Origin: an uncultured Gammaproteobacteria bacterium
GTDB lineage: Bacteria > Patescibacteriota > Patescibacteriia > Magasanikbacterales > UBA922
Direction of reading: 5' to 3'
DNA length: 64,000 nt
Assembly: GCA_964345045.1 (NCBI GenBank)
Contig: CAYFPM010000001.1
Coordinates: forward strand, 300,215 to 364,214
The translations under genes and the position numbers were made by a program. Positions 8,754 through 59,905 of the stretch are shown piece by piece (within the stretch, counting starts at the first letter, position 1; each line of letters starts with the position of its first letter). Under the pieces are notes generated by a model. That model was not told the DNA's origin, did no database searches, and saw nothing but the letters and a program-made list of their open reading frames with translations.

Positions 8754-10850
8754 ATGAGTAAATTTAAAATAAAATCTAAATATAAACCGGCAGGAGATCA
8801 ACCCGAGGCAATTAAGGGGTTAGTTTCTGGTATAAAAAATAAAGAAGAGAAGCAAACCCTGCTTGGGGTGACAGGGTCTGGTAAGACCTTCACAGTGGCC
8901 AATGTCATAGAAAAAGTGCAAAAGCCTACTCTAGTAATTGCTCACAACAAAACTCTGGCAGCCCAGCTGTGCAACGAATTCCGTGAATTTTTCCCAGACA
9001 ATGCAGTAGAATATTTTGTAAGTTACTACGACTACTACCAACCAGAAGCTTACATGCCTGGTAGTGACACCTATATAGAGAAAGAAGCTCAGATAAATGA
9101 AGAAATAGACAGATTGCGTCATGCTTGTACGCAAGCCCTTTTGTCTCGCAAAGATGTAATTGTGGTAGCTTCGGTTTCTTGCATCTACGGACTTGGTTCC
9201 CCCAAAGAATACGAAAAAATAGTTTTGCATTTGCGAAAAGGGGATAAGCTAGATCGTCGGGGCATGATGGAGCAGCTTATTGAAATGCAGTTTGAGCGTA
9301 CTAATGGAGATTTGAAACGCGGAAGTTTCCGTATGCGTGGACAGACTTTTGAAATCATGCCGGTTAACGAAGAAAAGATTTATCGGTTTGAAGTTTCAAA
9401 CTATATAGATAGTATTGAAATGATTGATCCTGTAACTAGAAAAATTTTGAAAGAACAAGAAGATGTTTGGTTCTTTCCAGCCAAACACTATGTAGCTAGT
9501 CCAGAAGCGAGAGAGCGAGCCTATACCAGTATCAAAACAGAATTAGAAGAGCGACTAGGATTTTTTAAGAAAAAAGGTAAAGTACTGGAATACGAAAGGT
9601 TAAAAAGAAGAGTTAATTATGATTTGGAAATGATTCAAAATCTTGGTTATTGTAATGGTATAGAAAATTATTCACGTCACTTTGACGGTAGGGTAGAGGG
9701 GGAACCGGCCTTTACATTGCTCGATTATTTCCGCGAAGCCGATAAAGATTTTCTTACAGTGATAGATGAATCGCATGTAACTGTACCACAGGTAAGAGCT
9801 ATGTATGCAGGCGACAGAGCTAGAAAGGATACCTTGGTAGAGCATGGCTTTCGTCTTCCATCTGCCAGAGACAATAGGCCACTCAAGTTTGAAGAGTTTG
9901 AAGAAAGAGTAAAGCAGACTATATATGTATCGGCTACTCCTGGTGAGTATGAAAATAAAGAATCTAGCCAAGTAGTAGAGCAGATTGTACGTCCGACTGG
10001 TTTGGTAGATCCAGAGATAATTGTGCGGCCGGTGACCCCCTCAGCCTCGGCTGCGGCCTCGGCAGCTCCCCCTAAGAGGGGGAGCGATCGTTCGGCTTCG
10101 TCCACGTCTTTATCTCAAATCGAGGATGTGATTCTTCGGATTGAAGATAGAATTGGAAAAGGGGAGCGGGCGTTGGTTACTACCCTGACCAAGAAAATGG
10201 CTGAGGACTTGGACGAATATTTGCGAGAAAAGAAAATTAAAGTTAAATACTTGCATAGTGATATTAAAACTTTGGAAAGAGTAGAAATAATTACGGCTCT
10301 TCGCAAGGGTGATATAGATGTGATTGTTGGAGTAAACTTGCTTCGTGAAGGACTTGATATGCCAGAAGTTTCGCTTGTTGCTATTCTCGATGCTGATAAA
10401 GAAGGATTTTTGCGTAGTGAAACTAGCTTGATCCAGACCATTGGTAGAGCCGCTAGAAATGTAAATGGCCAAGTGGTACTATATGCCGACCAGATGACAG
10501 GCTCGATTGAGCGAGCTATAGAAGAAACCACTCGCCGTCGCGAGATACAGCTTGCTTACAACAAAAAGCATGGTATTACCCCAAAGACTATTGAAAAAGA
10601 AATTAAAAATTTGCTCGAAGAATTTGGAATTGACGTTGAAAAAGAAAAGAATAAAAAAACCAGAAAGCAAAAAAATGCCAAGAGAACTACTTTGGAATTG
10701 GATTTACTCGGGGATGCTAGATCGATTAAAGAGATTATTAAGGACAAAGAACAAAAGATGAAAGAAGCTGCCCAGGGCCTAGAATTTGAATTGGCAGCAA
10801 TTCTGCGTGATGAGATAAGGGAATTAAAAGCCAGAGAAAAAGTGAAATAA
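8754..10850 (+). CDS. uvrB: excinuclease ABC subunit B (UvrB), carrying an in-frame GC-rich insertion
   Basis: Helicase motifs (GVTGSGKTFT), UvrB interaction domain and C-terminal UVR motif; extra VTPSASAAASAAPPKRGSDRSASSTSLS segment. Confidence 0.95.
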   Translation: MSKFKIKSKYKPAGDQPEAIKGLVSGIKNKEEKQTLLGVTGSGKTFTVANVIEKVQKPTLVIAHNKTLAAQLCNEFREFFPDNAVEYFVSYYDYYQPEAYMPGSDTYIEKEAQINEEIDRLRHACTQALLSRKDVIVVASVSCIYGLGSPKEYEKIVLHLRKGDKLDRRGMMEQLIEMQFERTNGDLKRGSFRMRGQTFEIMPVNEEKIYRFEVSNYIDSIEMIDPVTRKILKEQEDVWFFPAKHYVASPEARERAYTSIKTELEERLGFFKKKGKVLEYERLKRRVNYDLEMIQNLGYCNGIENYSRHFDGRVEGEPAFTLLDYFREADKDFLTVIDESHVTVPQVRAMYAGDRARKDTLVEHGFRLPSARDNRPLKFEEFEERVKQTIYVSATPGEYENKESSQVVEQIVRPTGLVDPEIIVRPVTPSASAAASAAPPKRGSDRSASSTSLSQIEDVILRIEDRIGKGERALVTTLTKKMAEDLDEYLREKKIKVKYLHSDIKTLERVEIITALRKGDIDVIVGVNLLREGLDMPEVSLVAILDADKEGFLRSETSLIQTIGRAARNVNGQVVLYADQMTGSIERAIEETTRRREIQLAYNKKHGITPKTIEKEIKNLLEEFGIDVEKEKNKKTRKQKNAKRTTLELDLLGDARSIKEIIKDKEQKMKEAAQGLEFELAAILRDEIRELKAREKVK
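10035..10110. repeat. GC-rich palindromic element (CTCCCCCTAAGAGGGGGAG core) inserted in-frame in uvrB
   Basis: ~75 nt at ~70% GC inside an AT-rich gene. It replaces the short canonical linker after PEIxVRP. It shares modules with elements at 18868, 12118, 35065 and 59876. Confidence 0.7.
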
Positions 10851-11678: not shown

Positions 11679-14327
11679 ATGAAAGATAAAATAACAATCA
11701 AAGGCGCGCGTGAGCATAATCTAAAAAATATTGATCTAGAATTACCTAGGAATAAAATGATTGTGTTCACTGGTCTATCTGGTTCGGGCAAATCGAGCCT
11801 GGCTTTTGATACCATATTTGCCGAGGGGCAACGTAGATATGTAGAAAGCTTGTCGGCCTATGCCAGGCAATTCCTAGGTGGTATGCAGAAGCCAGATGTA
11901 GATGAGATAGAAGGGCTTTCACCAGCTATTTCGATTGATCAGAAGGCTCATAGTGCCAATCCTCGCTCGACCGTAGCGACTATCACCGAGATCTACGATT
12001 ATTTGCGGGTGCTCTATGCTAGAGTCGGGGAGCCGTACTGTCCCGTAGATGGTACCAAGATAGAGAAGATGACTGTAGATGAGATGAATGAGAAGATTTT
12101 GAAGGGATTAAAGAATACTGCCAAACCCTCACCCGCTCGGCCGAAGGCCGAGTCGACCTCTCCCAGAGGGAGAGGTAAAGCTTCAACTTCGACTAAAGTA
12201 TCTAATGAAGTTTTGATTCTCTCGCCAATAGTTCGTGGTAGGAAAGGGGAGTACTACCAGATGCTTTATGATATGTATAATTCTGGTTTTCTAGAAGTGA
12301 GAGTTGATGGCAAAATCAAGAGTTTGCGCAAGCGGATTACTCTTACTAAGAACAAAAAGCACACTATAGAAGTAGTGGTAGACAAATTTCCACTAACAGA
12401 ATTTGAATTTTCTGGCGACAAAGCTGCCAAGCAGCGTCTTGCCGAGGCAGTAGAACAGGCTGTAGATCTATCCAATGGTCTTTGTGTGGTTATATACCCT
12501 GATGGTACCGAGACAGTCTATTCTACAGAATATTCTTGCCCCAAAGATGGTTTTAGCTTTCCAGAAATTGAGCCCAGGCTCTTTAGTTTCAATAGCCCTT
12601 ATGGGCAGTGTGGTTATTGTATGGGGATTGGAACCAAGGAACTCTTTAGTGAAGAATTGTGTCCAAAATGTGAAGGAAAGAGACTCAATGAAAATGCTTT
12701 GTCTGTAAAAGTGAACAAGAAAAATATTTATGAGCTTACCTCAATGGGGATTGGAGATGCCAAGCAATTTGTAGCAGATTTGGAAGAAACCATGAGTGAA
12801 AAAGATCTAGAAATTTCTGGAGCTGTTTTTCGCGAAGTCACGGGTCGTCTTCAATTCATGCTAGACGTAGGGCTAGACTACCTTACTCTAGATCGCAAAG
12901 CTGGCACTCTCTCTGGTGGAGAAGCTCAGCGTATCCGTCTGGCTTCGCAAGTTGGGACCAAACTGGTGGGAGCACTTTATGTGCTCGACGAACCAACCAT
13001 TGGCCTGCACCAGCGCGATAATGATCAGCTTGTTTCAACTCTACGCAATTTGTGTGATGTGGGTAATACTATTATTGTAGTTGAGCATGATGAAGATACT
13101 ATTATTACCAGTGATTGGTTGGTCGACATTGGCCCTGGGGCGGGTAAGCATGGTGGAGACGTGGTTTATTCTGGTCCACTGGAAAAGATTGTGAATTTGA
13201 AATCAAAGGCCAAGAATAATACTGGTTGTAAAGAATATGGTAGTGCCGATAAATCACTGACAGGTAAATACCTGCGCGGTGAGAAAAAGATAGCTGTGCC
13301 AGAGAAGAGGAGAAAGGTAGATAGCTCGACTCCCAAAATTAAGATAAAAGGGGCCAAAGAACATAACTTGAAAAATATTAATGTGGAAATTCCATTGCGT
13401 CGTTTGGTTTGCCTTACTGGTGTTTCTGGATCTGGTAAGTCCACGCTCATGCACGACATTCTATATCGCACAGTAGCCAATAGACTCAACCATGTAAAGA
13501 AAAAAACCGGTGAGCATAAGTCTATTACCAATACCGAATATATCGATAAGATAATTAGAATTGACCAAAGCCCGATTGGTCGCACCCCGCGTAGTAATCC
13601 AGCTACTTATACCAAAGCCTATGACCATATAAGAGAGATCTTTGCCTCTACACCAGAAGCCAGAATCCGTGGTTACAAATCTGGCCGCTTTAGTTTCAAT
13701 ACGCCCAATGGTCGGTGTGAAAATTGTGAAGGTCGGGGATTCCTAGAAATAGAGATGCACTTTTTGCCAAGTGTAGAGATTGTGTGTGATGTGTGCAAGG
13801 GACAAAGATTTGATCACGAAACTTTGCAAGTGCATTACAAAGGCAAAAATATTGCCGAAGTTCTCAATATGACCATCGAAGATGCTGAAGAATTCTTTCG
13901 AGATATTCCGGCAATTTATGATAAATTAAAAGTGCTTAACCAAGTTGGTCTTGACTATTTAACACTTGGTCAGTCGGCCAAGACTCTGTCTGGTGGAGAA
14001 GCGCAGCGTATCAAACTAAGTAAAGAACTCTCCAAAAGAAATACCACCAAGACCCTGTACCTGCTAGACGAACCAACAACTGGGCTGCATTATGATGATG
14101 TACGAAAACTGGTCGATGTGTTACAACGTTTAACTTCTCAGGGTAATACAGTGATGGTGATTGAACACAACTTAGATGTAATCAAATGTGCTGATTGGCT
14201 TATAGATCTAGGCCCAGAAGGTGGTAAAAATGGAGGGCAAGTAGTGGCTGTAGGGACACCAGAGGAGATTGCTCGCAAATCTACCACCAGTTTTACGGGT
14301 AAATATTTGAAGCGAGTTTTGAAATAA
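11679..14327 (+). CDS. uvrA: excinuclease ABC subunit A (UvrA), carrying an in-frame GC-rich insertion
   Basis: Two ABC ATPase modules (GLSGSGKSSL, GVSGSGKSTL), zinc-finger cysteines, LSGGE signatures; extra AKPSPARPKAESTSPRGRGKASTSTKVSNEV. Confidence 0.95.
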   Translation: MKDKITIKGAREHNLKNIDLELPRNKMIVFTGLSGSGKSSLAFDTIFAEGQRRYVESLSAYARQFLGGMQKPDVDEIEGLSPAISIDQKAHSANPRSTVATITEIYDYLRVLYARVGEPYCPVDGTKIEKMTVDEMNEKILKGLKNTAKPSPARPKAESTSPRGRGKASTSTKVSNEVLILSPIVRGRKGEYYQMLYDMYNSGFLEVRVDGKIKSLRKRITLTKNKKHTIEVVVDKFPLTEFEFSGDKAAKQRLAEAVEQAVDLSNGLCVVIYPDGTETVYSTEYSCPKDGFSFPEIEPRLFSFNSPYGQCGYCMGIGTKELFSEELCPKCEGKRLNENALSVKVNKKNIYELTSMGIGDAKQFVADLEETMSEKDLEISGAVFREVTGRLQFMLDVGLDYLTLDRKAGTLSGGEAQRIRLASQVGTKLVGALYVLDEPTIGLHQRDNDQLVSTLRNLCDVGNTIIVVEHDEDTIITSDWLVDIGPGAGKHGGDVVYSGPLEKIVNLKSKAKNNTGCKEYGSADKSLTGKYLRGEKKIAVPEKRRKVDSSTPKIKIKGAKEHNLKNINVEIPLRRLVCLTGVSGSGKSTLMHDILYRTVANRLNHVKKKTGEHKSITNTEYIDKIIRIDQSPIGRTPRSNPATYTKAYDHIREIFASTPEARIRGYKSGRFSFNTPNGRCENCEGRGFLEIEMHFLPSVEIVCDVCKGQRFDHETLQVHYKGKNIAEVLNMTIEDAEEFFRDIPAIYDKLKVLNQVGLDYLTLGQSAKTLSGGEAQRIKLSKELSKRNTTKTLYLLDEPTTGLHYDDVRKLVDVLQRLTSQGNTVMVIEHNLDVIKCADWLIDLGPEGGKNGGQVVAVGTPEEIARKSTTSFTGKYLKRVLK
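12118..12195. repeat. GC-rich palindromic element (CCTCTCCCAGAGGGAGAGG core) inserted in-frame in uvrA
   Basis: aaaccctcacccg...gtcgacctctcccagagggagaggt; near-identical to the right half of the uvrC element. Confidence 0.7.
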
Positions 14328-18083: not shown

Positions 18084-18085
18084 TT

Positions 18086-19477
18086 ATGTCTACAAAAATT
18101 CAAAAAAAATTAAAAAATCTTCCAGATACACCGGGTATCTATCTTTTTTATAATTTCAAAAAAGAATTAGTCTATGTAGGCAAAGCCACTTCTCTAAAAA
18201 GTAGAGTTAGAAGTTACTTCAACAGTGGTAACAAAACTAGCCGACCAATAGAAGCACTGATTCACGAAGTGGCAGATATAAAATGGAAAGAAGCAGACTC
18301 TGTACTAGAAGCCATAATAATGGAAGCCAACCATATAAAAAAATATCAACCCAAATATAATGTAGACGGTAAAGATGATAAAAGTTGGAATTATATTGTA
18401 ATAACCAAAGACGAGTATCCACGTGTAGAGACTGTGCGACAACATGAGCTTGAAAATGTACGAAATACTAAAGATACGAAATTACGAAAATTTAACGAAG
18501 TGTTTGGGCCATATCCTGGGTTGAATACCAAAGAGACTTTGAAATTGCTAAGAAAGATTTTTACTTATTCAACCTGTCAAAGCAAGAAAGCAAAAAAACA
18601 AGAAAGCAAAAAAGTTAAGCCATGTTTTTATTATCAACTAGGGCAGTGTTTGGGGGTGTGTACTGGCGAGATAAGTTCTACAGAATACAAAGCAAAAGTA
18701 ATTAGGCCTTTGAAAACTTTTCTTGGTGGTAGAAAAAAGCAACTTATAAAAAGTTTGGAAGTAAAAATGAGAAAGGAGTCTAAGCTAGAGAATTTCGAAG
18801 AAGCAGCCAGACTTCGCAACCAGATATCGGCTTTGCAAAGGATTCATGATGTGGCGCTTTTGAATAAATCGTTTGTAGATACCCCCTCAGGCCTGCGGCC
18901 AGCTCCCCCTAAACCCTCACCCGGACGCCCTGCGGTCGTTTCGACCTCTCCCAGAGGGAGAGGTGAAAACTCTGATTCTAGAAAAGAAGTTATTAGAATA
19001 GAAGGCTACGATATTTCTAATTTTGGTGCTACTGGCAAAGTGGGGTCGATGGTGGTCTTTGAATTTGGCGAAGCCAAGAAAAAAGATTACAGAAAATTTA
19101 AAATTAAATCTGTAGTAGGGCAGAGTGATGTGGATTGTCTCGAGGAAGTTCTTGAACGCAGACTGCGTCACGCAAAAAGCAAAGAGCAAGGAACAAAGAA
19201 CAAGAAAGATTTTTGGCCTTTGCCGCAAGTATTTTTGATTGATGGTGGTAAGCCGCAGGTTAACCGGGCAAAGAAAGTTTTGAAAGATAATAAAGTGGAT
19301 GTGCCGGTGGTGGGGATTGCCAAGGGGCCAGATAGAAAAAAAAATGAATTTATATTGGGGAGTAAGAATAAAGACTTTGTTAAATGGGTTTATTCTAATC
19401 AAAAATTGTTAATCGCGGTGCGCGACGAGGCTCATCGGTTTGCAATTGCTTATCAGCGAAAATTACGAAAATTATAA
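18086..19477 (+). CDS. uvrC: excinuclease ABC subunit C (UvrC), short form without C-terminal (HhH)2, carrying an in-frame GC-rich insertion
   Basis: GIY-YIG (PGIYLFYN...VYVGKA), UvrBC-binding region, RNaseH-like endonuclease (DEAHRFAI); extra DTPSGLRPAPPKPSPGRPAVVSTSPRGRGENSDSRK. Confidence 0.9.
   Translation: MSTKIQKKLKNLPDTPGIYLFYNFKKELVYVGKATSLKSRVRSYFNSGNKTSRPIEALIHEVADIKWKEADSVLEAIIMEANHIKKYQPKYNVDGKDDKSWNYIVITKDEYPRVETVRQHELENVRNTKDTKLRKFNEVFGPYPGLNTKETLKLLRKIFTYSTCQSKKAKKQESKKVKPCFYYQLGQCLGVCTGEISSTEYKAKVIRPLKTFLGGRKKQLIKSLEVKMRKESKLENFEEAARLRNQISALQRIHDVALLNKSFVDTPSGLRPAPPKPSPGRPAVVSTSPRGRGENSDSRKEVIRIEGYDISNFGATGKVGSMVVFEFGEAKKKDYRKFKIKSVVGQSDVDCLEEVLERRLRHAKSKEQGTKNKKDFWPLPQVFLIDGGKPQVNRAKKVLKDNKVDVPVVGIAKGPDRKKNEFILGSKNKDFVKWVYSNQKLLIAVRDEAHRFAIAYQRKLRKL
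18868..18957. repeat. GC-rich composite palindromic element inserted in-frame in uvrC
   Basis: ccccctcaggcctgcggccagctccccctaaaccctcacccgg...cgacctctcccagagggagaggtg. Left half matches the uvrB element and right half the uvrA element. Confidence 0.7.
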
Positions 19478-19608: not shown

Positions 19609-19680
19609 TGGGGCGGGCCGGAATCGAACCGGAGACTCTCTGACGGACGTCAGGCGCTTTCCCAATTAAGCTACCGCTCC
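19609..19680 (-). tRNA. tRNA-like gene with atypical anticodon arm (possibly Gly-UCC-like); CCA not encoded
   Basis: Acceptor GGAGCGG/CCGCCCC (one A-C mismatch), D arm GCTT-AATTGGGA-AAGC, T arm with TTCGATT loop. The anticodon region CTGACGTCCGTCAG folds as a tight palindrome and gives a 6-nt loop under the standard template. Confidence 0.45.
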
Positions 19681-21020: not shown

Positions 21021-21962
21021 ATGAGACATGTACCAGTATTGTTAAACGAAGTATTAGAAGCACTAAATTTGGAATCAGGTAAAAATATTGTCGATTGCAC
21101 CTTAGGAGACGCTGGTCACTCGGAAAAAATATTAGAAAAGATTAGTCCAGATGGAAAATTGCTTGGAATTGATGCTGATCCAGAATCAATTTTGCGTGCC
21201 AAGAAATATTTGCATCAGTACGAAGGTAGAACTGTTTTTGTAAGAGATAATTTTGTAGGAATCAAAAGTATTGTAGAAGAAGAAAAATTTGCACCGGTTC
21301 ATGGAGTCTTACTAGATCTAGGTTGGTCTACTCCTCAGTTCGAAGAAAGAAGAAGAGGTTTTAGTTTCAAAAATTTGCAAGAACCGCTTGATATGCGCTA
21401 CGACAAGAGACGAGCTTGTAAGCACAATGTAGGAGGGGAGTATTACGAAGCTTGTACTGCGGCCAGTATCTTGAATACCGAATCAGAAAAAGAATTGGCC
21501 AGAATTTTTAAAGAATACGGAGAAGAAAAGTTTGCCAAAGAAATTGCCAAAGCAGTTGTAGAAAAAAGAAAAGAATTGGAATTTGAACTAGTAGGAGATT
21601 TGGTGAATACAGTTTTAGAAGTTTATAGAAAAAAATTAAAAACAGATAAAGAAATTCCTTGGATAGGCGGGCTGCACCCAGCTACCAAAGTGTTCCAAGC
21701 GTTGAGAATAAGTGTAAATGAAGAACTAACAGCTGTAAAAGAAACTTTGCCGCAAGCAGTAGAAGTACTGGAACCAGGTGGTAGATTGGCCATAATATCG
21801 TTTCATTCGCTAGAAGACAGAATAGTCAAACATTATTTCAAAAGTCAGGATGGAAAAAGTCTAAAAATAATTACCAAAAAGCCAATTACCTGTGGAGAAG
21901 AAGAATACAAAAATAATCCACCTTCACGTTCTGCCAAATTGCGAGTTGTCGAAAGGATATAG
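21021..21962 (+). CDS. rsmH: 16S rRNA (cytosine1402-N4)-methyltransferase RsmH
   Basis: HVPVLLNEVLEAL, SAM-binding DCTLGDAGHS, FHSLEDRIVK. Confidence 0.9.
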   Translation: MRHVPVLLNEVLEALNLESGKNIVDCTLGDAGHSEKILEKISPDGKLLGIDADPESILRAKKYLHQYEGRTVFVRDNFVGIKSIVEEEKFAPVHGVLLDLGWSTPQFEERRRGFSFKNLQEPLDMRYDKRRACKHNVGGEYYEACTAASILNTESEKELARIFKEYGEEKFAKEIAKAVVEKRKELEFELVGDLVNTVLEVYRKKLKTDKEIPWIGGLHPATKVFQALRISVNEELTAVKETLPQAVEVLEPGGRLAIISFHSLEDRIVKHYFKSQDGKSLKIITKKPITCGEEEYKNNPPSRSAKLRVVERI

Positions 21963-21995
21963 GAAGTAGGCAACAGGCAATAGTTATTAGAAAAA
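21963..21995. repeat. TAGGCAACAGGCAATAG motif plus imperfect hairpin after rsmH (family also at 37888 and 44733)
   Basis: gaagtaggcaacaggcaatagtt...ctattacct. Confidence 0.5.
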
Positions 21996-32945: not shown

Positions 32946-33064
32946 ATGTGCGAATTACGAATTTTGCGAATATACGAATAAAGTATTTATATTTATTATT
33001 CGTTCTTTTGTTTTACTAAATTAAAGTATTCGTGAATTCGTACTATTCGTAATTCGCACATCAT
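32946..33064. repeat. ~40-bp imperfect inverted repeat with TACGAAT/ATTCGT iteron-like units, upstream of dnaB
   Basis: atgtgcgaattacgaattttgcgaatatacgaataaagtat ... agtattcgtgaattcgtactattcgtaattcgcacat. Confidence 0.5.
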
Positions 33065-34506: not shown

Positions 34507-35016
34507 ATGAAAGAAACAAGATTAATAGTTCTACGAGGTCCATCTGGATCTGGAAAAAGTTCTGTTGCTAGGTCTGTGAGAGTAGAAGAATTAGAAAAAA
34601 ATAAAAAAATAGCTTATATCGAACAAGATTATTTTAGGAGAATCGTTTTGAAAGAGAAAGATATTGTCAACGGATTTAATATAGAATTTATCAAGGAAAC
34701 AGTTAAGTTTTTGCTTAGTAAAAATTATGATGTAATAATGGATGGTATATTTGATAATAATCGTTATAAAAAAATGTTTGAAGAGTTAATTAAATTTCAT
34801 CCTAATAATAATTTCTTTTTTTATTTTGATATTTCTTTTGAAGAAACTCTAAAAAGACACAATACCAAACCTAACAAAAATGATTTTGGTGAAAAGGAAA
34901 TGAGAGCTTGGCATAAGGATAAAGATTTTCTTGAATTTGTAGAAGAAAATTTGATTACAGAAAATAATAATTTTGATGAAAATGTAAGAGCAATTATAGA
35001 TTCTTGTAGTATTTAG
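34507..35016 (+). CDS. P-loop kinase / AAA_33-like small NTPase
   Basis: Walker A LRGPSGSGKSS; translationally coupled to the GT4 gene. Confidence 0.5.
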   Translation: MKETRLIVLRGPSGSGKSSVARSVRVEELEKNKKIAYIEQDYFRRIVLKEKDIVNGFNIEFIKETVKFLLSKNYDVIMDGIFDNNRYKKMFEELIKFHPNNNFFFYFDISFEETLKRHNTKPNKNDFGEKEMRAWHKDKDFLEFVEENLITENNNFDENVRAIIDSCSI

Positions 35017-35064
35017 ATTTAATTTTTTACTTTTGTAATTCAAAGGTTTACGATTACCGAGTAA

Positions 35065-35095
35065 CCCCCTCTGTCTCCCCCTTGGTAAGGGGGAG
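35065..35095. repeat. intergenic GC-rich palindromic element (CCCCCTCTGTCTCCCCCTTGGTAAGGGGGAG)
   Basis: Sits between convergent genes; ~87% identical to the element at 59876. Confidence 0.7.
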
Positions 35096-35105
35096 TACTT
35101 GAAAA

Positions 35106-37196
35106 TTACTCCAAGACATACTCATAAACCCAAACCCTACCACCAGCTAGCTCCCACCAATTGTCGGCTTCTAGCTTGGCAGCGTCTCTTATTTCGGCTG
35201 CCGGGGCCCAGTAGTTGGTATGGATAAAATAAGCTTTTTTTACATCAGCATACTCCATAGCCTCTACCATCCATTTTTTTCTAGGTTCTTCGTAAACCAT
35301 CTTCCGGAAATATTGGTATAGAGGTCCTCCGGTAGGGATAGAATAAAAAAATTGAGGGCCATCCGATGTTTGGTGATAATGGGCAAAGCCCAATTTATTT
35401 ATAGCTGCTACAGATACAACTTGGTTGGTTAAGACAATATACTTGCTGGGATCATAATCGTTTCTACTATTGATTAGCTCAATAGCTACTTCGTCTGCCG
35501 ATCTAATTTGGTATCCAGTGTGTAGTGAAATTGGATCTCTGGTAGGGTAGGTAAAATAAAAACTAATAAGTACAAAAAATCCTAAAATTATAGATAGTAA
35601 AATTTTGTTTAGTTTTGTTTTTGCAAAAAATTTGTAAACAAAAAATACAAAATAAGGGATTAAGAAAACAAACAAAATTTGCAAAACTCTCTGGGCATAA
35701 ACATTTTGTTCGTAAGAAATAACAGAAGGAAATTCAAACGTGGTAGCCAACAAAAAGGCCGATAAAAACAAAGAACCAATAGTAGTAAAGATAAAATTTT
35801 TGTGGGTCTCACTACCTTTTTCGTATAGCCAAACTCCGGCCAACATGGCAAAAACAATTACAAACTTGAAAGCAATTATATAAGCGTAAAGTAGTTGCCA
35901 CTTGGTAGGCGCGCCAGAAAAAATATACCAATGTGGTGGTGAAAAAATTATAACAAAATTTTCCAAACGTTCTAATGGATTGTGAAGGACAATACTCTCG
36001 GCTGCTCGCAAAGAATTGAGATACAGGGCTGCTGGCAAAACCAATGCCAAAGATAGAGCGTAAGAAATATTTTTTAGTAAATAATTTTTTACAAGTTTCT
36101 TTTTATAAAAAATAAAAGCTGTGTAAATTATAATAGTTGGTAATCCAATAAGAGGGTGAATGGCCGTACTAGCCAAGGCTAGAGAATAATATAGAATAAT
36201 GGTTTCTTTTGTTAATTTTTCTTTTTGATAAAAGATTCCTCCAAACACAGCCAAAGCAAACAATAGAGCCAAATTGTTTGGGGTAGTAAAAGTAAAAAAA
36301 CTAAGTGGGATTAACAAAGTAGCTAAAATTGGGTAAACATTTTTCACTCTATTTTTTAGAGCCTTAATTAATATAATCGGCAAAGACAAGCCGGCCAAAA
36401 GTGGCACCAAAATTTTGTTTAAAAATTCTATACTTAGACCAGTGAGTTTTTGCAAAAACAATACCAACATATATTGCCCAATGTAGTAGGGCTGTTTGGG
36501 TTCTATCACCCCGGTCTCCAAGATTTTTTTGGTAGAAGCTTGGTGGATTACACCATCAAAACCAAAAGCATAAGTAAATAAGAAATTAATTATAGAAAGA
36601 GATAAAAAGAAATGTATAACAAGCAGAAATAAATTTTTGTAAATATTTTTGCTAGTTTGCAATATATAAAATAATAATGCTGTGGCAACAAAATAAATTA
36701 AGAAAAATTTTGGTCCTACAAAAATCCAAGGAGAAATAAAAGTGTCCGAAGTCTGGCGACTTTGCAATACTCCAAATAGAGCTATGTATAGAGCCAACAA
36801 AAGTAAAGTTAGAATAAGTATTTTTAGGTTTGGTTTGGTTATTTTTAATTTAATTGTTAGAGTTTCAAATTTGGAAATAAGTATCGTAAAAACAGTTACC
36901 AGTGGAATGGTAAAAAATACAAAAGAAGAACTATAGCCCCAAAACCAATAAACCCCTGACCAAGCAAAAATTATTAAGGAGATTAAAAAAGCATTTCCCC
37001 AAAAAAGTTTAACCAGCTTGTTTTCTTCTTTAAATCTATTTCTTGCCAGGATGGCTCCGTGAAAAATAAAGTAAAAAATAGTTATAACTGTATTAACGAT
37101 TGGGTTTTGTAGATATATAACCAAAATAATTTGTAAAAAGCCTAGGCAAATTAAAGCGGCTATTTGAGAGCTTTTGTTTATAGATAAAATTTTCAT
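35106..37196 (-). CDS. large polytopic membrane protein, putative GT-C-type glycosyltransferase
   Basis: More than 14 TM helices plus a C-terminal soluble domain; located in the glycan locus. Confidence 0.5.
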   Translation of the reverse strand: MKILSINKSSQIAALICLGFLQIILVIYLQNPIVNTVITIFYFIFHGAILARNRFKEENKLVKLFWGNAFLISLIIFAWSGVYWFWGYSSSFVFFTIPLVTVFTILISKFETLTIKLKITKPNLKILILTLLLLALYIALFGVLQSRQTSDTFISPWIFVGPKFFLIYFVATALLFYILQTSKNIYKNLFLLVIHFFLSLSIINFLFTYAFGFDGVIHQASTKKILETGVIEPKQPYYIGQYMLVLFLQKLTGLSIEFLNKILVPLLAGLSLPIILIKALKNRVKNVYPILATLLIPLSFFTFTTPNNLALLFALAVFGGIFYQKEKLTKETIILYYSLALASTAIHPLIGLPTIIIYTAFIFYKKKLVKNYLLKNISYALSLALVLPAALYLNSLRAAESIVLHNPLERLENFVIIFSPPHWYIFSGAPTKWQLLYAYIIAFKFVIVFAMLAGVWLYEKGSETHKNFIFTTIGSLFLSAFLLATTFEFPSVISYEQNVYAQRVLQILFVFLIPYFVFFVYKFFAKTKLNKILLSIILGFFVLISFYFTYPTRDPISLHTGYQIRSADEVAIELINSRNDYDPSKYIVLTNQVVSVAAINKLGFAHYHQTSDGPQFFYSIPTGGPLYQYFRKMVYEEPRKKWMVEAMEYADVKKAYFIHTNYWAPAAEIRDAAKLEADNWWELAGGRVWVYEYVLE

Positions 37197-37248: not shown

Positions 37249-37872
37249 ATGAGTTACTTAAGTGAATTTAAGAAAAAACATCCGGATTTGTTTACTTATC
37301 TGCCGGCCAACGAAATCCACCCTCACGATCATATGATGGAGAGGACTTTTTTGCGTTTGTTGCCACGTAGCATTACTCCAAATCAAGTAACCTTATTTAG
37401 AATAATAACTACTCCGATAGTATTTTTGACGATACTTTTTGGAGATTACACCCTTGGGGTGGTATTTTTTGTATTGGTAGCCTTTACCGATGCTATAGAC
37501 GGGTCGCTCGCCAGAACCAAACACAAGGTAACCAAGTTTGGAATGTTGTTTGATCCTTTGGCCGACAAACTCCTCATTGGATCAATGGTGCTTTTGTTGG
37601 TGTTTAAATATTTTAATTTGTGGCTTGGAGTGGCTTTGCTTGGAATTGAAATTATTTTTATTATGACAGCTTTGGTAGCCGGTACAAAATTCAAAACAGT
37701 CCACGCTGCCAATCGTTGGGGTAAGATAAAAATGATTTTACAAGTTTTGGCTGTCTTTTTTACTTTGCTCGCGCTTTTGTTGGAATTCCCAACTCTTATG
37801 ACTGTAGCAGCTTGGCTTTTTGGTCTGGCCATTGGTTTTGCTGTGCTTAGTCTGTTTTCGCATGGGATTTAG
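37249..37872 (+). CDS. CDP-alcohol phosphatidyltransferase (native, low GC)
   Basis: D-G-x2-A-R...G-x3-D-x3-D: FTDAIDGSLARTKHKVTKFGMLFDPLADKL. Confidence 0.8.
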   Translation: MSYLSEFKKKHPDLFTYLPANEIHPHDHMMERTFLRLLPRSITPNQVTLFRIITTPIVFLTILFGDYTLGVVFFVLVAFTDAIDGSLARTKHKVTKFGMLFDPLADKLLIGSMVLLLVFKYFNLWLGVALLGIEIIFIMTALVAGTKFKTVHAANRWGKIKMILQVLAVFFTLLALLLEFPTLMTVAAWLFGLAIGFAVLSLFSHGI

Positions 37873-37887
37873 ATAGGAGATAGGGAG

Positions 37888-37960
37888 TAGGCAACAGGCA
37901 ATAGTCTTAAATATCAAAAACTATTGCCTATTTTCTACTGACTCCTGCCTATAAAAATGA
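37888..37960. repeat. TAGGCAACAGGCAATAG-family long imperfect hairpin
   Basis: gggagtaggcaacaggcaatagtcttaaatatcaaaaactattgcctattttctactgactcctgcctat. Confidence 0.5.
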
Positions 37961-43886: not shown

Positions 43887-44729
43887 ATGCGTATTTTAAT
43901 AATAGGAAATGGTTATCTTGGCAACAGATGTAAGGAAGTTTGGGGTGAAGAAGCAGTGATAGAAGGTGCTAGAAATATAAAATCAAAAGATGATGTTTTG
44001 CAATTGATTGAAAAACATAATCCAGATGCCATCCTTAATGCCGGAGGAAGAAAAGGGAGTCCAAACGTGGATTGGTGTGAAACTAATCAAACAGAAACAG
44101 TTACTGGAAATGTAACTATCCCGCTTCTAATTGCCGAAGCTGCTGCTGAAAAAAATGTGTATCTGCTTCACTTGGGATCTGGTTGTATTTTTTATGGCGA
44201 CTCGCCCCACCCGGACAAAGCTTGGCGCGAAGATGATTTTGGTAATCCAAAACCTGTTTACTCGCGCACCAAATGGGCAGCCGACCTAGCGCTCTCTACT
44301 ATGCCAAATGTAGGGATTGCCAGAATCAGAATGCCAATAGACAACCGTCCGCATCCGGGCAATCTAATAGACAAGTTGGCTAGTTACCCAAAAATTATTG
44401 ATGTGGAAAATAGTGTAACGATTATTCCAGACATGATAAATGTTTTTTATAAACTAATGGAAAAAAAAGGAGTAGGAATTTTTCATGTTACCAATCCGGG
44501 ATCCTTGCGACACAAGCGTGTAATGGAGTTGTACCGAGAGTTGGTTGACCCTAGTCATAACAACGAGTGGATAGAGAATGAAGAATTAGTAAAAAATGGT
44601 TTGGCAGCCAAAGGCCGATCGAACAATATTTTGCATTCGGAAAATTTGGAGAAATTGGGAATTGAGATGAGGCCGGTAGAAGAAGCGATTGTGGAGACGA
44701 TGAAGGAATATACTAAAAATAGAGGTTAG
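43887..44729 (+). CDS. RmlD-like NAD(P)-dependent sugar-nucleotide reductase
   Basis: MRILIIGNGYLGN Rossmann; RmlD substrate-binding family. Confidence 0.55.
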   Translation: MRILIIGNGYLGNRCKEVWGEEAVIEGARNIKSKDDVLQLIEKHNPDAILNAGGRKGSPNVDWCETNQTETVTGNVTIPLLIAEAAAEKNVYLLHLGSGCIFYGDSPHPDKAWREDDFGNPKPVYSRTKWAADLALSTMPNVGIARIRMPIDNRPHPGNLIDKLASYPKIIDVENSVTIIPDMINVFYKLMEKKGVGIFHVTNPGSLRHKRVMELYRELVDPSHNNEWIENEELVKNGLAAKGRSNNILHSENLEKLGIEMRPVEEAIVETMKEYTKNRG

Positions 44730-44732
44730 GGG

Positions 44733-44760
44733 ATAGGCAGGAGGCAATAGTGAATAGGTT
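44733..44760. repeat. TAGGCA(G)GAGGCAATAG-family motif after the rmlD-like gene
   Basis: ggggataggcaggaggcaatagtgaatagg. Confidence 0.45.
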
Positions 44761-45028
44761 GTAGTGGGTAGTGGTTTGGTGGATGTTTTTTGGCTAAATT
44801 TAGATAAAAAAGTCTAGCTTGGGCTAGCTTTTTTGGTTTTATCTGATTTTGGTTGACAAAAGGTGTTTTTTTTGGTAATTTTAGCTGTCAATTCTATAAT
44901 AGGATAATTGTATGCGGAGACTGTAATTGGTTGGGAGAAGGTGAAATTTCTTCCACCCTATGCGTTCTTCGTCGTTCAGAAATTTTTAGTATGAACGGCA
45001 AAACAATTTAGAAGGAGGAAGGTTAGAA

Positions 45029-45868
45029 ATGAGTGACAAAAAAGGAAAAGTAGAAGTCACTGAGCAGGTTCATCTCGGACGATCTTGGAGGGTAGGTGAA
45101 GCGTACGATCCTGGTTCCGATATGCCCACGGGTATGGAGGAAGTGCCGAAAGACTTCCTTGACGATGATGGTGCTACGGAGGATGAGCCTGACGATACAG
45201 AGGTTCAACTGGTTCGTCCGCTCACAGACAGCCAAGTGGATCAGCCTGCCCCCGCCGGGCTGGGCTACTACGATGAGCCTCCTACGGAGGAGGGCCCCCC
45301 TCTTCCTTCGGAATCGCCTGCTGTGGTCTCTATCCCCACCGATACGCTCGTGCAGCAACCGGCATTGAGTTGGTGGCAGATTCCTGGCAACTGGGTCAAG
45401 GTGGTGACTATCTTGCTCGTTTTTGTCGTGGCTCTTTTGTTGGGCATGCTCAACAAAAAGTCGGATGAAGAGATCAAGGCTGAACCGCTTGATCAAGCTG
45501 CCCCGGCAAGTAAGCTGGTAGACATTCCCGATGATCCCCCTGTGGCTACGTCGGCGGTCGCTACCGCCCCAGATGCTGGAGTGATGCCCGAGGATCCTCC
45601 TCGGGTAGCTCCAGTGCTCAGGAGGAGTGGTCCTGATGCGGGAGTGAAGAAGGCGGTCAAGAGGAAGGCAAAGAAACGTCGGGAGAAACGCAAGAAGAAA
45701 CCGGCGAAAGATCCAGAAGAAACTACTACCACCCACCAACTTTTGCCTGGAGAGTCTGTCGAAGACTACTGTGACCGGTGGTCTGCCAAAACTTTTTCCA
45801 GCCCTGGCTTGGCTAGGATTGGCGCTTACAAAAGCTGTGTCAAGGAATTGAAAGGAGGAGGCAAATGA
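45029..45868 (+). CDS. single-pass membrane protein with acidic Pro-rich N-region and Lys-rich C-region; high GC (island E gene 1)
   Basis: SD gaaggagg upstream. The first ~14 codons are AT-rich and then GC rises to ~62%. One TM helix (VKVVTILLVFVVALLLGML). Confidence 0.5.
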   Translation: MSDKKGKVEVTEQVHLGRSWRVGEAYDPGSDMPTGMEEVPKDFLDDDGATEDEPDDTEVQLVRPLTDSQVDQPAPAGLGYYDEPPTEEGPPLPSESPAVVSIPTDTLVQQPALSWWQIPGNWVKVVTILLVFVVALLLGMLNKKSDEEIKAEPLDQAAPASKLVDIPDDPPVATSAVATAPDAGVMPEDPPRVAPVLRRSGPDAGVKKAVKRKAKKRREKRKKKPAKDPEETTTTHQLLPGESVEDYCDRWSAKTFSSPGLARIGAYKSCVKELKGGGK

Positions 45869-46791
45869 GAGCCTTCGTGATTGCTATCTTTTTGGTTTTT
45901 TCTTCCAGCTTGATGGCGCAAGCCTCTGACTGGAAGGACGTTCTGCATCTCCCTCCGAAAGATCCGGGCAGCCCACGATTGGTGGGCAAGGCAGCCGACG
46001 TCATGGGGGCTTTGGCTCACTGTCAGCAAGAAGTCCGTTGTCAGATCTTGGTGAAGGAGGATAAGCCCGGTGGGACTGAGTATGGGAATATGTGGCACGA
46101 GGAGTGTTACGAACTTCTCAACTCGGCCGCGATCATGAAACCAGGGCCGGAAACTTGGTTCGTCTCGGAAAAAGACGAGATGGTGGTAGCGATAGATGAT
46201 CCTGGCTCTGGTGGCCACGAAGGTGCTGTGATCAAGTGCCGAGTAGATCCCAAGCCGGCTACCATGCCCTCTATGCCATCGTCACCCCCACCAACCGTAG
46301 CCAAAGCGGTCGAACTTCAAGGTGAGAGCGATTTCAAGTTCGCCCTCACAGTCGACTTCGGAGTCGGTTTCTCACGACTCGATCCGTCGCCGGACCATTA
46401 CTTCGACGGTACGGTCGGCATCGGAGGACTGCTCTTGATCAATGATTTCTGGGAGGTCGCTCTCCGAATCGACTTTGGTGGGACATTCCGCGAGGGACAG
46501 ACGTGGTACTTCGTACCACAGCTCTCTGGCGGGGTGCGACCGGCCGACTGGATATACTTCGGCGTCTTTGGGCGCCTTGGTGGTGCAACCCAGGGATCCT
46601 ACTGGGGTAACCTAGGATTTGGAGTACGGGTGTACCCGCTCAAGATCTTCGGATCGGAGTTCCCGTTGGCTGTCTTCTTCGAGACCGATGCCCTTGGGCG
46701 TCAGGTCACACCGGAGACCGAGACCCACAACCCTGGCGATCAGGGGCGCATGGGCCTGCGCGGTGGTCTACGCTACGAAGCTTTTTTCTAA
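45865..46791 (+). CDS. secreted protein with beta-barrel-like C-terminus ending ...YEAFF (island E gene 2)
   Basis: Signal peptide MRAFVIAIFLVFSSSLMAQA; Gly/aromatic-rich alternating pattern; terminal Phe like OMP beta-barrels; ATGA overlap with gene 1. Confidence 0.5.
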   Translation: MRAFVIAIFLVFSSSLMAQASDWKDVLHLPPKDPGSPRLVGKAADVMGALAHCQQEVRCQILVKEDKPGGTEYGNMWHEECYELLNSAAIMKPGPETWFVSEKDEMVVAIDDPGSGGHEGAVIKCRVDPKPATMPSMPSSPPPTVAKAVELQGESDFKFALTVDFGVGFSRLDPSPDHYFDGTVGIGGLLLINDFWEVALRIDFGGTFREGQTWYFVPQLSGGVRPADWIYFGVFGRLGGATQGSYWGNLGFGVRVYPLKIFGSEFPLAVFFETDALGRQVTPETETHNPGDQGRMGLRGGLRYEAFF

Positions 46792-46911
46792 CGTTCATTT
46801 TTTGGCGGATGAGATCTTTCGAGATCCATCCGCCCCGTTCACATGTTCAGCATTGCAAATGCTGTGCAGGTGTTGGGTAACGCTCTTTCAAATTTTGGAA
46901 AGGAAAACAAG

Positions 46912-48384
46912 ATGAAGAAGATCGCTTTGGCCGTCTTGGCCGCACTGTTCACCTCCACCGGCTGCGAGGTGGTAAACCTCGGCAGCCCGGGTATGGCGCC
47001 GACTGAGAAGCACTTCGTGCAGTATGACGGCGGAGATCTCGACGCAGGTTTCATCGTCGGCGACGACGTGGGGCCCATCGATATGGGCTTCATCGACGCT
47101 GGCTACGATGTCGGCTTCCGCGACGCCAACCTCGACGCAGAGGCAATGGATGCGATCGCTGACGCCGACGTGACCGATGTCTACGACGACGTTGGGTTCG
47201 CTGATGCAGAAGCAGATTCTGGTCTGGACGACAGCGGGGTTCACCCCGATGCCGACTTGCCGGACGCGATCGTAGACTCGGGACCCGAGGATACTGGCGT
47301 CCACCCGGACGCCTTTGTCCCCGACATGGGTTTCCCAGACGCCGAGCCGATCGACGCCGTGATCCATCCCGATGCGGAGATTACGGACAATGGAATCCAC
47401 TTTGACGCCACAGTATACCCCGATGCTACGCCAGACACAGGGTTCCCAGACAGCGGCTTTGCCGACTCTGGGACTCTGGATTCTGGACTCGACGCTGGGG
47501 TTATCGACGGTGGTGGCCCGCCTGTTTGTCCGGCCGGGTTCATCTATGTAGCTCCTGGTTCGTTCACTATGGGGACTCCGGCTGCAGCACCGTGGTTCTC
47601 CTCGCCAGAAGGACCGCAACACCAGGTCAGTTTGACCTATGGCTACATCATGGGGGAGACCGAGGTAACCAGAGCCCAGCTGCAAGCAGTGTTGGGCATT
47701 GCTCGAGATCCTTCTTGGAACACCGGCTGTGGGGCAAATTGCCCGGCTACCAACGTGAGCTGGGACCTGGCGGCCGAGTATGCCAATGCTCTTTCTATTA
47801 GCCAAGGTCTGTCTCCATGCTACGCTGGCTCTGCCGGGAGCTACACTTTCGTAGGACTCTCGTGTACTGGCTGGCGTATGCCGACCGAGGCCGAGTGGGA
47901 ATTTGCCGCTCGAGCTGGTAGTACCACTGCCTTTTGGAATGGTGACCCAGTGAACTTCTCCTCGGGGAGTGCTATGACAACCTTTGGTGAGCCTGGGCAT
48001 GCAATTGCCTGGTGGTTGGCCAATAGTCAGGTAGCCTACACTCCAGCTGTGGACACGTTCACGGCTCCGGACAATGGATTTACCATGGCTGGTACGCACC
48101 CGGTAGCCACCAAGACCCCCAATCCGCTCGGTCTCTATGACATGAACGGCAACGTCTGGGAGCTTACCTCGGATTGTTGGACGCAGACCTACCCGGGATC
48201 AAATCCCAGAACCAATCCGGTGACCGGGGCTGGTACCCGGTGTGCCAGTATTGTGAGGCGTGGAGGAAGTTTTGCCGACCCGCAAAGCTCCTTGCACAAC
48301 TCCACTAGGTTTGGAGATTTCCCGCATGTTCAGAATCCTCTCAATGGTTTCCGGATAGCGCGTAATCACCCGGCCTGCCAGTAG
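46912..48384 (+). CDS. lipoprotein with Asp-rich HPDA repeats and C-terminal FGE-sulfatase (SUMF1/DUF323) domain (island E gene 3)
   Basis: Lipobox LFTSTGC; GSFTMGTP...TNVSWDLAAEYANALS...GWRMPTEAEWEFAARAG...YDMNGNVWELTSDCW...RGGSF. Confidence 0.7.
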   Translation: MKKIALAVLAALFTSTGCEVVNLGSPGMAPTEKHFVQYDGGDLDAGFIVGDDVGPIDMGFIDAGYDVGFRDANLDAEAMDAIADADVTDVYDDVGFADAEADSGLDDSGVHPDADLPDAIVDSGPEDTGVHPDAFVPDMGFPDAEPIDAVIHPDAEITDNGIHFDATVYPDATPDTGFPDSGFADSGTLDSGLDAGVIDGGGPPVCPAGFIYVAPGSFTMGTPAAAPWFSSPEGPQHQVSLTYGYIMGETEVTRAQLQAVLGIARDPSWNTGCGANCPATNVSWDLAAEYANALSISQGLSPCYAGSAGSYTFVGLSCTGWRMPTEAEWEFAARAGSTTAFWNGDPVNFSSGSAMTTFGEPGHAIAWWLANSQVAYTPAVDTFTAPDNGFTMAGTHPVATKTPNPLGLYDMNGNVWELTSDCWTQTYPGSNPRTNPVTGAGTRCASIVRRGGSFADPQSSLHNSTRFGDFPHVQNPLNGFRIARNHPACQ

Positions 48385-48583
48385 AGTCGCCTCATTTCTT
48401 TTCCTTTTACCCCTCTCGAGTCACGCCCACCCAAGCGCGACTCGAGAACATCCATCCCATACTTTTTTAACACTGATTACGCTGATTTAAATTATAGATT
48501 TCGCAGATTTATATGTGTGTGAAAGGTAAGTTTACTAGGTGTAGGATGATTGTTTTTTTACACAGATTACATAGATTGATACA

Positions 48584-59825: not shown

Positions 59826-59875
59826 AGTTTAATAAAAAAAGACCTAAACGGTCTTTTTTGTTTTTAGTATTTTTA

Positions 59876-59905
59876 CCCCCTCTACCTCCCCCTTGTCAGG
59901 GGGAG
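59876..59905. repeat. intergenic GC-rich palindromic element (CCCCCTCTACCTCCCCCTTGTCAGGGGGAG)
   Basis: Between convergent genes, next to a separate AT-type terminator hairpin (aagacctaaacggtctt). Confidence 0.7.

Follow-up and report, generated by a model that had tools for sequence, protein, structure and literature searches.

The window analysed here, 64,000 nucleotides of contig CAYFPM010000001.1 (assembly GCA_964345045.1, positions 300,215 to 364,214) from an uncultured bacterium (genome of ~38% GC) that GTDB places in the Patescibacteriota (Magasanikbacterales, UBA922), carries two short, GC-rich palindromic units, each lying between convergent genes. Copy 1 (CCCCCTCTGTCTCCCCCTTGGTAAGGGGGAG, 35065-35095) and copy 2 (CCCCCTCTACCTCCCCCTTGTCAGGGGGAG, 59876-59905) have exactly the letters quoted for them in an earlier note on this DNA, and agree at 27 of 31 columns when aligned by eye (87%), the degree of identity that the note had claimed. 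The unit proper begins one base before each quoted start, at the A of 35064 in copy 1 and the A of 59875 in copy 2; the 32-nt minus-strand unit sequence is CTCCCCCTTACCAAGGGGGAGACAGAGGGGGT, and the flanks are AGTAA/TACTT (copy 1) and TTTTA/AACTT (copy 2). The convergent gene pairs described in the note were confirmed, with gene calls that agree with those of the source assemblies, and the proteins encoded beside the copies are ordinary ones: a P-loop kinase-like protein, a 696-aa protein without family match, a DUF1003 protein and a DnaQ-like 3'-5' exonuclease, whose homologues carry the names Candidatus Magasanikbacteria or Patescibacteria. Both units are unchanged in 9 of 9 strain-level contigs of metagenome project PRJEB17505.

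The palindrome is over-represented. A hairpin of the form CTCCCCCT-N2-12-AGGGGGAG occurs three times in the window (10066, 35075 and 59886) against 0.00 expected from 100 shuffles, and the octamer CTCCCCCT nine times against 1.2 expected, while the arm together with its upstream C-box, CCCCCTCTNNCTCCCCCT, is present only at the two quoted sites. The hairpin at 10066 belongs to a copy inside uvrB. The note was correct in seeing one palindrome in the two intergenic copies and the uvrB element, and in uniting them in a single family of short, GC-rich, dispersed palindromic repeats. It was equally right that copy 2 lies next to, and is separate from, an A/T-flanked terminator, the hairpin of which is placed 15 nt before the copy (Table 1).

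Table 1. Positions in the window of the repeat units, their blocks (Y, pyrimidine; R, purine; read on the minus strand) and the adjoining features
Feature	Position	Strand	Details
Copy 1, class II triplex motif	35064..35095	(-)	8 perfect triplets, 0 mismatches
Copy 1, Y arm	35095-35088	(-)	CTCCCCCT
Copy 1, loop 1	35087-35083	(-)	TACCA
Copy 1, R arm	35082-35075	(-)	AGGGGGAG
Copy 1, loop 2	35074-35072	(-)	ACA
Copy 1, third block	35071-35064	(-)	GAGGGGGT
Copy 2, class II triplex motif	59875..59905	(-)	8 perfect triplets, 0 mismatches
Copy 2, Y arm	59905-59898	(-)	CTCCCCCT
Copy 2, loop 1	59897-59894	(-)	GACA
Copy 2, R arm	59893-59886	(-)	AGGGGGAG
Copy 2, loop 2	59885-59883	(-)	GTA
Copy 2, third block	59882-59875	(-)	GAGGGGGT
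uvrB coding copy	10035..10084	(-)	CTCCCCCT-CTT-AGGGGGAG-23 nt-GAGGGGGT; same G5 stems
uvrA coding copy	12126..12175	(-)	CCTCTCCC-TCT-GGGAGAGG-23 nt-GGGTGAGG(G); TMECO-like stems
uvrC coding copy	18914..18963	(-)	stems shared with the uvrA copy, to which it is 75% identical (repeat D7); 23-nt loop 2
Gene beside copy 1	34507-35016	(+)	copy 1 lies 48 nt past its stop
Gene beside copy 1	35106-37196	(-)	copy 1 lies 10 nt past its stop
Gene beside copy 2	59391-59825	(+)	copy 2 lies 50 nt past its stop
Gene beside copy 2	59913-60665	(-)	copy 2 lies 7 nt past its stop
Terminator hairpin	59835-59859		A/T-flanked
RAYT-like open reading frame	17502-18083		193 aa

Mirror symmetry of the three blocks

A feature overlooked in the earlier note is the relation between the C-box and the hairpin that follows it. 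The upstream box mirrors the C-rich hairpin arm (ACCCCCTC-TGT-CTCCCCCT) rather than repeating it loosely in direct orientation. Each copy, read on the minus strand, is accordingly CTCCCCCT-loop-AGGGGGAG-3 nt-GAGGGGGT, with a third block in mirror symmetry to the purine arm. Pairing of the first two blocks would set the third antiparallel to the purine arm, and the triplets G·G-C, A·A-T and T·A-T are possible at 8 of 8 positions. Conventional Watson-Crick folding of either strand yields the hairpin only (-9.6 to -10.9 kcal/mol for copy 1 as DNA) and leaves the third block unpaired.

The window was scanned in the manner of ITxF for perfect 8-bp homopurine/homopyrimidine stems with a loop 1 of 2-8 nt, a loop 2 of 1-30 nt and a third block obeying the purine motif. 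Five G-rich class II motifs were returned, all on the minus strand and each with 8 perfect triplets and no mismatch, namely the two intergenic units and one copy in each of uvrB, uvrA and uvrC. G-rich motifs with 7 or 8 triplets were absent from 200 dinucleotide-preserving shuffles, as against the five of the window, and a one-mismatch scan for degenerate copies in the window added no motif. With 8 of 8 triplets, a loop 1 of 4-5 nt and a loop 2 of 3 nt, both intergenic copies lie within the limits of the intrastrand-triplex class, for which a stem >7 and loops of 0-10 (Hoyne) or a stem of 6-15 and loops of 1-6 (ITxF) are given; the uvr copies also reach 8 of 8 triplets, but their 23-nt loop 2 exceeds both loop limits.

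The mirror relation of C-box and arm places the element in the BoxC/PIT/intrastrand-triplex-motif class, the names of which have been, in succession, BoxC, PIT elements, and TM or TMECO. BoxC is an Escherichia coli palindromic repeat described in the 1990s, to which the class II intrastrand triplex motif was traced (Holder et al. 2015, PMC4666352), and PIT stands for the "potential intrastrand triplex" elements of Hoyne et al. 2000, as these are cited in PMC4666352. TMECO, as defined by Holder et al., has the consensus CCCTCNCCC-N3-6-GGGNGAGGG-N3-GGGNGAGGG, with two types of loop 2, TTA and CCG (PMC4666352). Its 23 copies in E. coli K-12 are always intergenic, include five inverted pairs and show no strand bias and no tie to gene class or mobile elements, and 3,610 copies are known from 262 proteobacterial genomes, among which close relatives differ greatly (PMC4666352). 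The isolated TMECO strand forms a stable triplex in vitro, as seen by circular dichroism and nuclear magnetic resonance, and more rearrangement was recorded around TMECO sites than at control sites (PMC4666352).

Recurrence and co-variation across genomes

The earlier note had named a lack of further copies as an outcome that would speak against its repeat family. This outcome did not arise, as at least 120 matching stretches were found in each of two collections, across many phyla. In a collection of one genome per species the pattern was CCCCCTC-N2-25-CTCCCCCT-N3-6-AGGGGGAG (23 fixed bases, for which ~1-2 chance matches are estimated in that collection); in metagenome contigs it was a far more restrictive pattern of 27 bases, based on the copies of the window, and the metagenome loci listed with the unit range from ~30% to 70% GC. 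The genome matches listed include Patescibacteria (Taylor-, Sacchari-, Gracili-, Peri- and Parcubacteria), Alpha-, Beta- and Gammaproteobacteria, Geobacter relatives, Bacteroidota, Chloroflexota, Planctomycetota, Verrucomicrobiota, Omnitrophota, Cyanobacteria, Clostridia, Spirochaetota, Armatimonadota and others. Judged from these sequences, the unit is not a family private to one lineage.

This wide distribution is also patchy. No motif was present in ~60 kb of sequence from relatives (64-70% protein identity), in which the exonuclease 3' regions carry ordinary terminators. As the closest relatives are too divergent for insertion boundaries or target duplications, the site was scored as presence or absence, and the absence in the relatives fits a lineage-specific gain, loss in the relatives being the other possibility. 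The consensus unit is rare on plasmids (10 of 72,556 records, mostly Moraxella osloensis) and was found in none of 50,697 phage records, and its orientation relative to local GC skew gave no significant strand bias (56:41 over 97 loci, p=0.15). The M. osloensis plasmid matches (e.g. NZ_CP024177.1 54087-54120) consist of a 34-nt consensus, ACCCCCTCTAACTCCCCCTTGTCAGGGGGAGAAC, in unannotated DNA, found at 100% identity in five of seven plasmid records of this species and at two places per plasmid. In three loci of Gallionellaceae and Sideroxydans, and in four from one metagenome, the triplex unit sits inside a longer conserved repeat, for example …AGGGGGAG-AACCGAACCCGCTCC… with C-rich blocks downstream, which suggests that in some taxa the unit is part of a composite arrangement similar to that of bacterial interspersed mosaic elements.

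The blocks co-vary as the rules for triple helices predict. This was followed at the positions that the search pattern leaves free, in a set of 141 distinct hairpins drawn from many phyla. Immediately 5' of the C5 box, 106 of these hairpins have A, 26 have T, 6 have G and 3 have C, so that 94% agree with the purine motif but only 18% with the pyrimidine motif; read on the G-rich strand, the base is a T or an A facing the terminal A-T pair, exactly what the purine motif allows. Where stems are longer by one pair the box is longer in step, the extensions of box, Y arm and R arm being C,C,G (54 cases), T,T,A (13 cases) or A,T,A (11 cases), and 78 of the 80 purine-side extensions obey the purine-motif rules. 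The tendency extends beyond the G5 family: with that family left out, other G-rich homopurine stems (AGGGGAGG, AGGAGGGG, AAGGAGGG, GGGAGAGG and others) in 1.5 Mb of element-bearing loci have a third block that is mirror-only in 157 strand-instances, direct-only in 10 and both in 63, ratios to be taken as indicative and not as probabilities, since kinship of copies within genomes and sliding 8-mers inflate the counts. The spacer has preferences too. Of the 30 genome-collection units with a 3-nt spacer, 13 have TAA as their C-strand loop 2, the most frequent form (TTA when read on the G strand), and 3 have CGG (CCG). In the metagenome sample, 78 of 129 units have AA at the two free spacer bases, which amounts once more to TAA, or TTA on the opposite strand. 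Flank profiles of 88 collected units, grouped by 3-, 5- and 7-nt spacers, revealed a 5' A plus a weak 3' AAC or GA only.

Mirror symmetry is unlike the expected outcome of simple template copying, and it would follow that either selection keeps it or the spread of the units requires it. Cross-phylum recurrence and co-variation by triplex rules therefore constitute comparative evidence that a triplex-compatible architecture is selected, or is required for spread. Since all three blocks are apparently kept in register by selection, the relevant structure is most likely DNA rather than RNA.

Two other designs were considered and rejected. In an alternative-hairpin (attenuator-like) arrangement the third block would be a direct repeat, and it is mirrored (157 vs 10); Watson-Crick pairing between box and purine arm would moreover need a T 5' of the box, where A predominates. 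A G-quadruplex was discarded on the ground that each strand has only two G5 runs.

Within the window the family also enters coding sequence. The uvrB motif opens a 26-residue in-frame insert (10035-10112) that follows VRPV; these residues (428-453 of UvrB) have no counterpart in solved UvrB, and the insert starts exactly at the first base of the motif, 10035. In 84 of 100 homologue fragments the spacing at this site is short and there is no insert. The closest UvrB relative (72% identity; JGI contig Ga0376277_0340717) has a different, GC-rich insert of 24 residues (…HTPTPLKRGRDKSLLEEGGEV…) at exactly the same site after RPVT, which would represent either a diverged old insert or a repeatedly hit site. 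In UvrA, ~30 residues over the motif do not align to solved UvrA (insert region about 12105-12206), and loop 2 of this copy contains a mini-hairpin, CTCGGCC-TTC-GGCCGAG. The uvrC motif is located in the linker before the RNase H-like endonuclease domain. Loop 1 measures 3 nt and loop 2 23 nt in each of the three copies, and all three genes are hit within 9 kb. Elsewhere the G5 unit lies in frame, in either orientation, in MurE, AlaRS, RecG (twice), IMP dehydrogenase, QueG, Nth, an RlmI-like methyltransferase, FtsK, a RecO-like protein and glycosyltransferases, the host proteins having been named by reading the translated sequences.

Alternative explanations

The position of the two units invites the view that they serve the convergent pairs as ordinary intrinsic terminators acting in both directions, or as stem-loops that stabilise 3' ends, with the C-box incidental. 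Both are downstream of two stop codons, by 7-10 nt for the minus-strand gene and by 48-50 nt for the plus-strand gene; copy 1 is the sole strong hairpin of its intergenic gap, and copy 2 passes a plus-strand terminator scan, its 8-bp stem being followed by AACTTTTTTA. We nonetheless regard this explanation as unlikely. Copy 1 has no T-run on either strand and is terminator-like in neither direction, whereas copy 2, terminator-like in the plus direction only, comes after a canonical terminator that already acts in both directions. Three family members stand in frame within uvrA, uvrB and uvrC, and a terminator there would be fatal to the gene; the third block with its co-variation is left unexplained. 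In E. coli, PIT elements acted neither as terminators nor as promoters, according to work cited in PMC4666352. The coding copies in the uvr genes, the cross-phylum recurrence and the missing T-run of copy 1 bear out the position of the earlier note that the units are not just local terminators. Its emphasis on convergent gene ends as a family trait did not carry over to other loci: in the other low-GC loci, 6 of the 25 intergenic copies are at convergent sites, no clear enrichment over the 20 convergent sites among 125 background gaps, and the remaining copies are at 15 tandem and 4 divergent sites (83 and 22 in the background). Convergent placement is therefore a fact of this window and not a rule of the family. 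A secondary terminator or stabiliser effect is compatible with membership in the triplex class.

A further reading, which takes up the REP/REPIN-like family of the earlier note and the association with a transposase that it wished to see tested, is that of a repetitive extragenic palindrome (REP) family, possibly forming REPINs (two inverted REPs with a short spacer between them; PMC3337134), mobilised in trans by the REP-associated tyrosine transposase (RAYT)-like Y1 enzyme encoded at 17502-18083. The units do resemble usual REPs in being short, GC-rich, repeated palindromes at gene 3' ends (PMC3733652). The open reading frame looks like an intact Y1 HUH enzyme (HUH-type motif NHFHAIV; PF01797, E 1.5e-7; NF047646, 70.5 bits), a trans-acting enzyme need not adjoin its units, and overlapping inverted pairs of units exist in some other genomes (four loci). 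Against this, the REP hallmark, a tag of GTAG or CGTC that remains unpaired at one palindrome end (PMC3733652), is absent from the flanks of both copies and from the profiles of the 88 collected units, and the window has single units only, with no inverted doublet. No unit is found in 17100-18140 around the open reading frame, the nearest being 830 nt off, inside uvrC and of the other subtype. The score against NF047646, the NCBIfam model of REP-associated tyrosine transposases, is below its cut-off of 80 bits, and tblastn detected no homologue of the open reading frame in 1.54 Mb (835 kb + 710 kb) of element-bearing loci, a weak test given that an enzyme acting in trans may be encoded at any place in a genome. 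A mirrored third block is not accounted for by REP models, and TMECO has no tie to mobile elements according to Holder et al. (PMC4666352). Furthermore, the RAYT-like open reading frame itself holds a GTAG-ended palindrome of other sequence (17791-17818), a likelier relative of its cognate repeat. We thus consider mobilisation as a REP/REPIN family distinctly improbable. The part of the earlier proposal that survives is the existence of dispersed GC-rich palindromic repeats; the REPIN label, without doublets in the window or a GTAG/CGTC tag, and the association with the RAYT-like gene do not, and pairing is a property of some other genomes, not of the window.

The palindrome at 17791-17818 deserves a separate mention. 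It is perfect and GTAG-ended (GTAGAGACGCATTGCAATGCGTCTCTAC) and is read in frame as VETHCNASLQ. A near-identical hairpin, GAGACGCA-N6-TGCGTCTCTAC, occurs at positions 2825-2846 of a locus (L088) from a Bacteroidales metagenome-assembled genome that also has the triplex unit, there within a gene for a QueG-like protein. It may represent a second cross-phylum palindrome family and the cognate repeat of the open reading frame.

The presence of in-frame copies in all three excinuclease genes adds to an unexplained bias of other palindromic repeats: unrelated REPs with GTAG and CGTC tags lie inside uvrA/B/C/D, recBCD, polA and dnaE2, which in some species are the sole genes hit (Di Nocera et al., PMC3733652). 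Among the in-frame hosts elsewhere, those that read as RecG, Nth, FtsK and a RecO-like protein are accompanied by non-repair genes. It could be imagined that landing in excision-repair and recombination genes reflects a real mechanistic link of these pathways to triplex DNA and not just tolerance of inserts in linkers, the G5 unit being one of a set of pan-bacterial elements kept or spread by means of a purine-motif triplex of the G-rich strand in single-stranded DNA. We hold this to be improbable; if true, the link to repair genes could mean insertion during repair synthesis at stalled forks, or a modulated repair capacity and mutation rate.

An RNA-level element, in which the C-rich transcript (box-arm-arm) would form a pyrimidine-motif triple helix (C+·G-C, U·A-U) guarding 3' ends, could appeal to the C-rich strand being the sense strand of uvrA, uvrB and uvrC and being present in read-through transcripts of the two plus-strand genes, and to the ability of RNA to form pyrimidine-type intrastrand triplexes (PMC4666352), but it is very improbable indeed: the base facing the A-T pair at the box end is A in 75% and T in 18%, where the pyrimidine motif needs T/U and the purine motif takes both, the 11 A,T,A extension triplets fit the purine motif only, five C+ triplets in a row are unfavourable at neutral pH (PMC4666352), the unit is found in both orientations in coding regions elsewhere, and no Rfam family matches the units. 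A search of the whole window against Rfam at gathering thresholds returned tRNA only, and at E<=1 there was no match to copy 1 and only matches far below threshold to copy 2. The Rfam tRNA call lies at 19609-19680 on the minus strand (44.1 bits); ARAGORN reported no tRNA in the window.

The window contains further repeats besides the triplex family. A 34-nt intergenic repeat unrelated to it, GATAGGAGATAGGGAGTAGGCAACAGGCAATAGT, is present at 21951-21984, 37872-37905 and 44725-44758, two of the copies being 91% and 71% identical to the reference copy and one being palindromic with an inverted partner at 37917-37958. Long AT-rich or word-like inverted repeats surround single genes or small gene groups (32946-33061, 30831-30860/31271-31300, 28286-28318/30089-30121, 43474-43517/43833-43876 and 59019-59050/60681-60712); they include a 33-nt pair, 97% complementary and 1.77 kb apart, as well as palindromes of the TGCGAATTACGAAT type. 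A GC-rich island at about 44000-48400 (47-58% GC against ~37% elsewhere) contains an open reading frame for an FGE-sulfatase domain (46843-48384) and a long antisense open reading frame (46888-48099), and may have been horizontally acquired.

Interpretation and comparison with known elements

The intergenic units are best filed, on the strength of their sequence, as new members of the BoxC/PIT/intrastrand-triplex-motif class with a G5-core stem, here in a Patescibacteria genome. We consider it likely that they belong to this class, that their G-rich strand folds into a triplex when single-stranded, and that they are tolerated, non-autonomous repeats, probably without a dedicated role. In the mechanism that we favour, the G-rich (minus) strand would become transiently single-stranded during replication, repair or transcription, its first two blocks would pair as an 8-bp hairpin, and the third block would enter the major groove of this hairpin, antiparallel to the purine arm, with the G·G-C, A·A-T and T·A-T triplets of the purine motif. 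The units sit where they would do little harm, at gene 3' ends and in protein linker loops, and are absent at the orthologous site of relatives. As incidental side effects, they may give each of the two convergent transcripts a stem-loop at its 3' end, provide a reserve terminator in the case of copy 2, and cause replication to pause or the DNA to be unstable nearby.

Several points weigh against this interpretation. The samples are not independent, the copies within a genome being related and most positions being fixed by the search pattern. The core is near-identical across phyla, with preferred loop and flank bases, which a neutral repeat does not explain and which hints at a sequence-specific partner, for example a protein or a mobilising enzyme. 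For TMECO itself, in vivo footprinting with dimethyl sulphate revealed no triplex, the duplex remaining B-DNA (PMC4666352), and by analogy the structure may form only transiently here, or not at all. Finally, the 8-nt G5-core stems differ from the TMECO consensus, and homology with BoxC would be conjectural, the likeness being one of architecture and loop 2.

With these reservations, a repeat that resembles a lineage-specific REP appears to be an instance of the BoxC/PIT/triplex-motif class in a genome of the candidate phyla radiation; the literature consulted contained no report of such repeats in Patescibacteria. A design of ~30 nt recurs nearly unchanged in many phyla, in genomes of ~30-70% GC.

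The comparison with known systems can be made from the more distant to the closest. Rho-independent terminators and terminator-like repeats share with the units a GC-rich stem-loop just past stops and, in copy 2, a plus-strand T-run, but copy 1 has none, and neither a conserved third block nor coding copies nor cross-phylum identity are terminator traits. The coding uvr members recall the Rickettsia palindromic elements, which are in-frame palindromic inserts in housekeeping genes that add a short loop or linker peptide (PMC10969869, PMC3733652); those of the RPE-1 type are, however, ~150 bp long, genus-restricted and without triplex symmetry, and the two focal copies here are intergenic. REPs and REPINs are likewise short (20-40 bp), GC-rich, dispersed palindromes, often near the 3' ends of convergent or tandem genes (PMC3337134, PMC3733652), with occasional copies inside genes, notably uvrA/B/C and other repair genes (PMC3733652), whereas the window units have no GTAG/CGTC tag, no inverted doublets and no RAYT flanked by copies, and their mirrored third block is foreign to REPs.

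The BoxC/PIT/TMECO elements differ from the focal units in several respects. The host here is an AT-rich, Magasanikbacteria-like genome of the Patescibacteria, not one of the Proteobacteria. The focal stems CTCCCCCT/AGGGGGAG/GAGGGGGT (N4-5 and N3 loops) depart from CCCTCNCCC/GGGNGAGGG, so that they lie outside the strict TMECO consensus. TMECO in E. coli is always intergenic, while members of the window family also lie in frame inside genes, and the coding copies have a 23-nt loop 2. The resemblance nevertheless extends to most of the design. On the G-rich strand both have, in the same order, a pyrimidine arm, a 3-6 nt loop, a purine arm, a 3-nt loop and a mirrored G-rich block, with 8-9 perfect triplets in about 31-37 nt and a loop 2 that is commonly TTA or CCG. 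Both are multi-copy, mostly intergenic, patchy among relatives and rare on plasmids and phages, without preference for strand or gene class, and the uvrA and uvrC copies of the window even have TMECO-like stems (GGGAGAGG / GGGTGAGGG).

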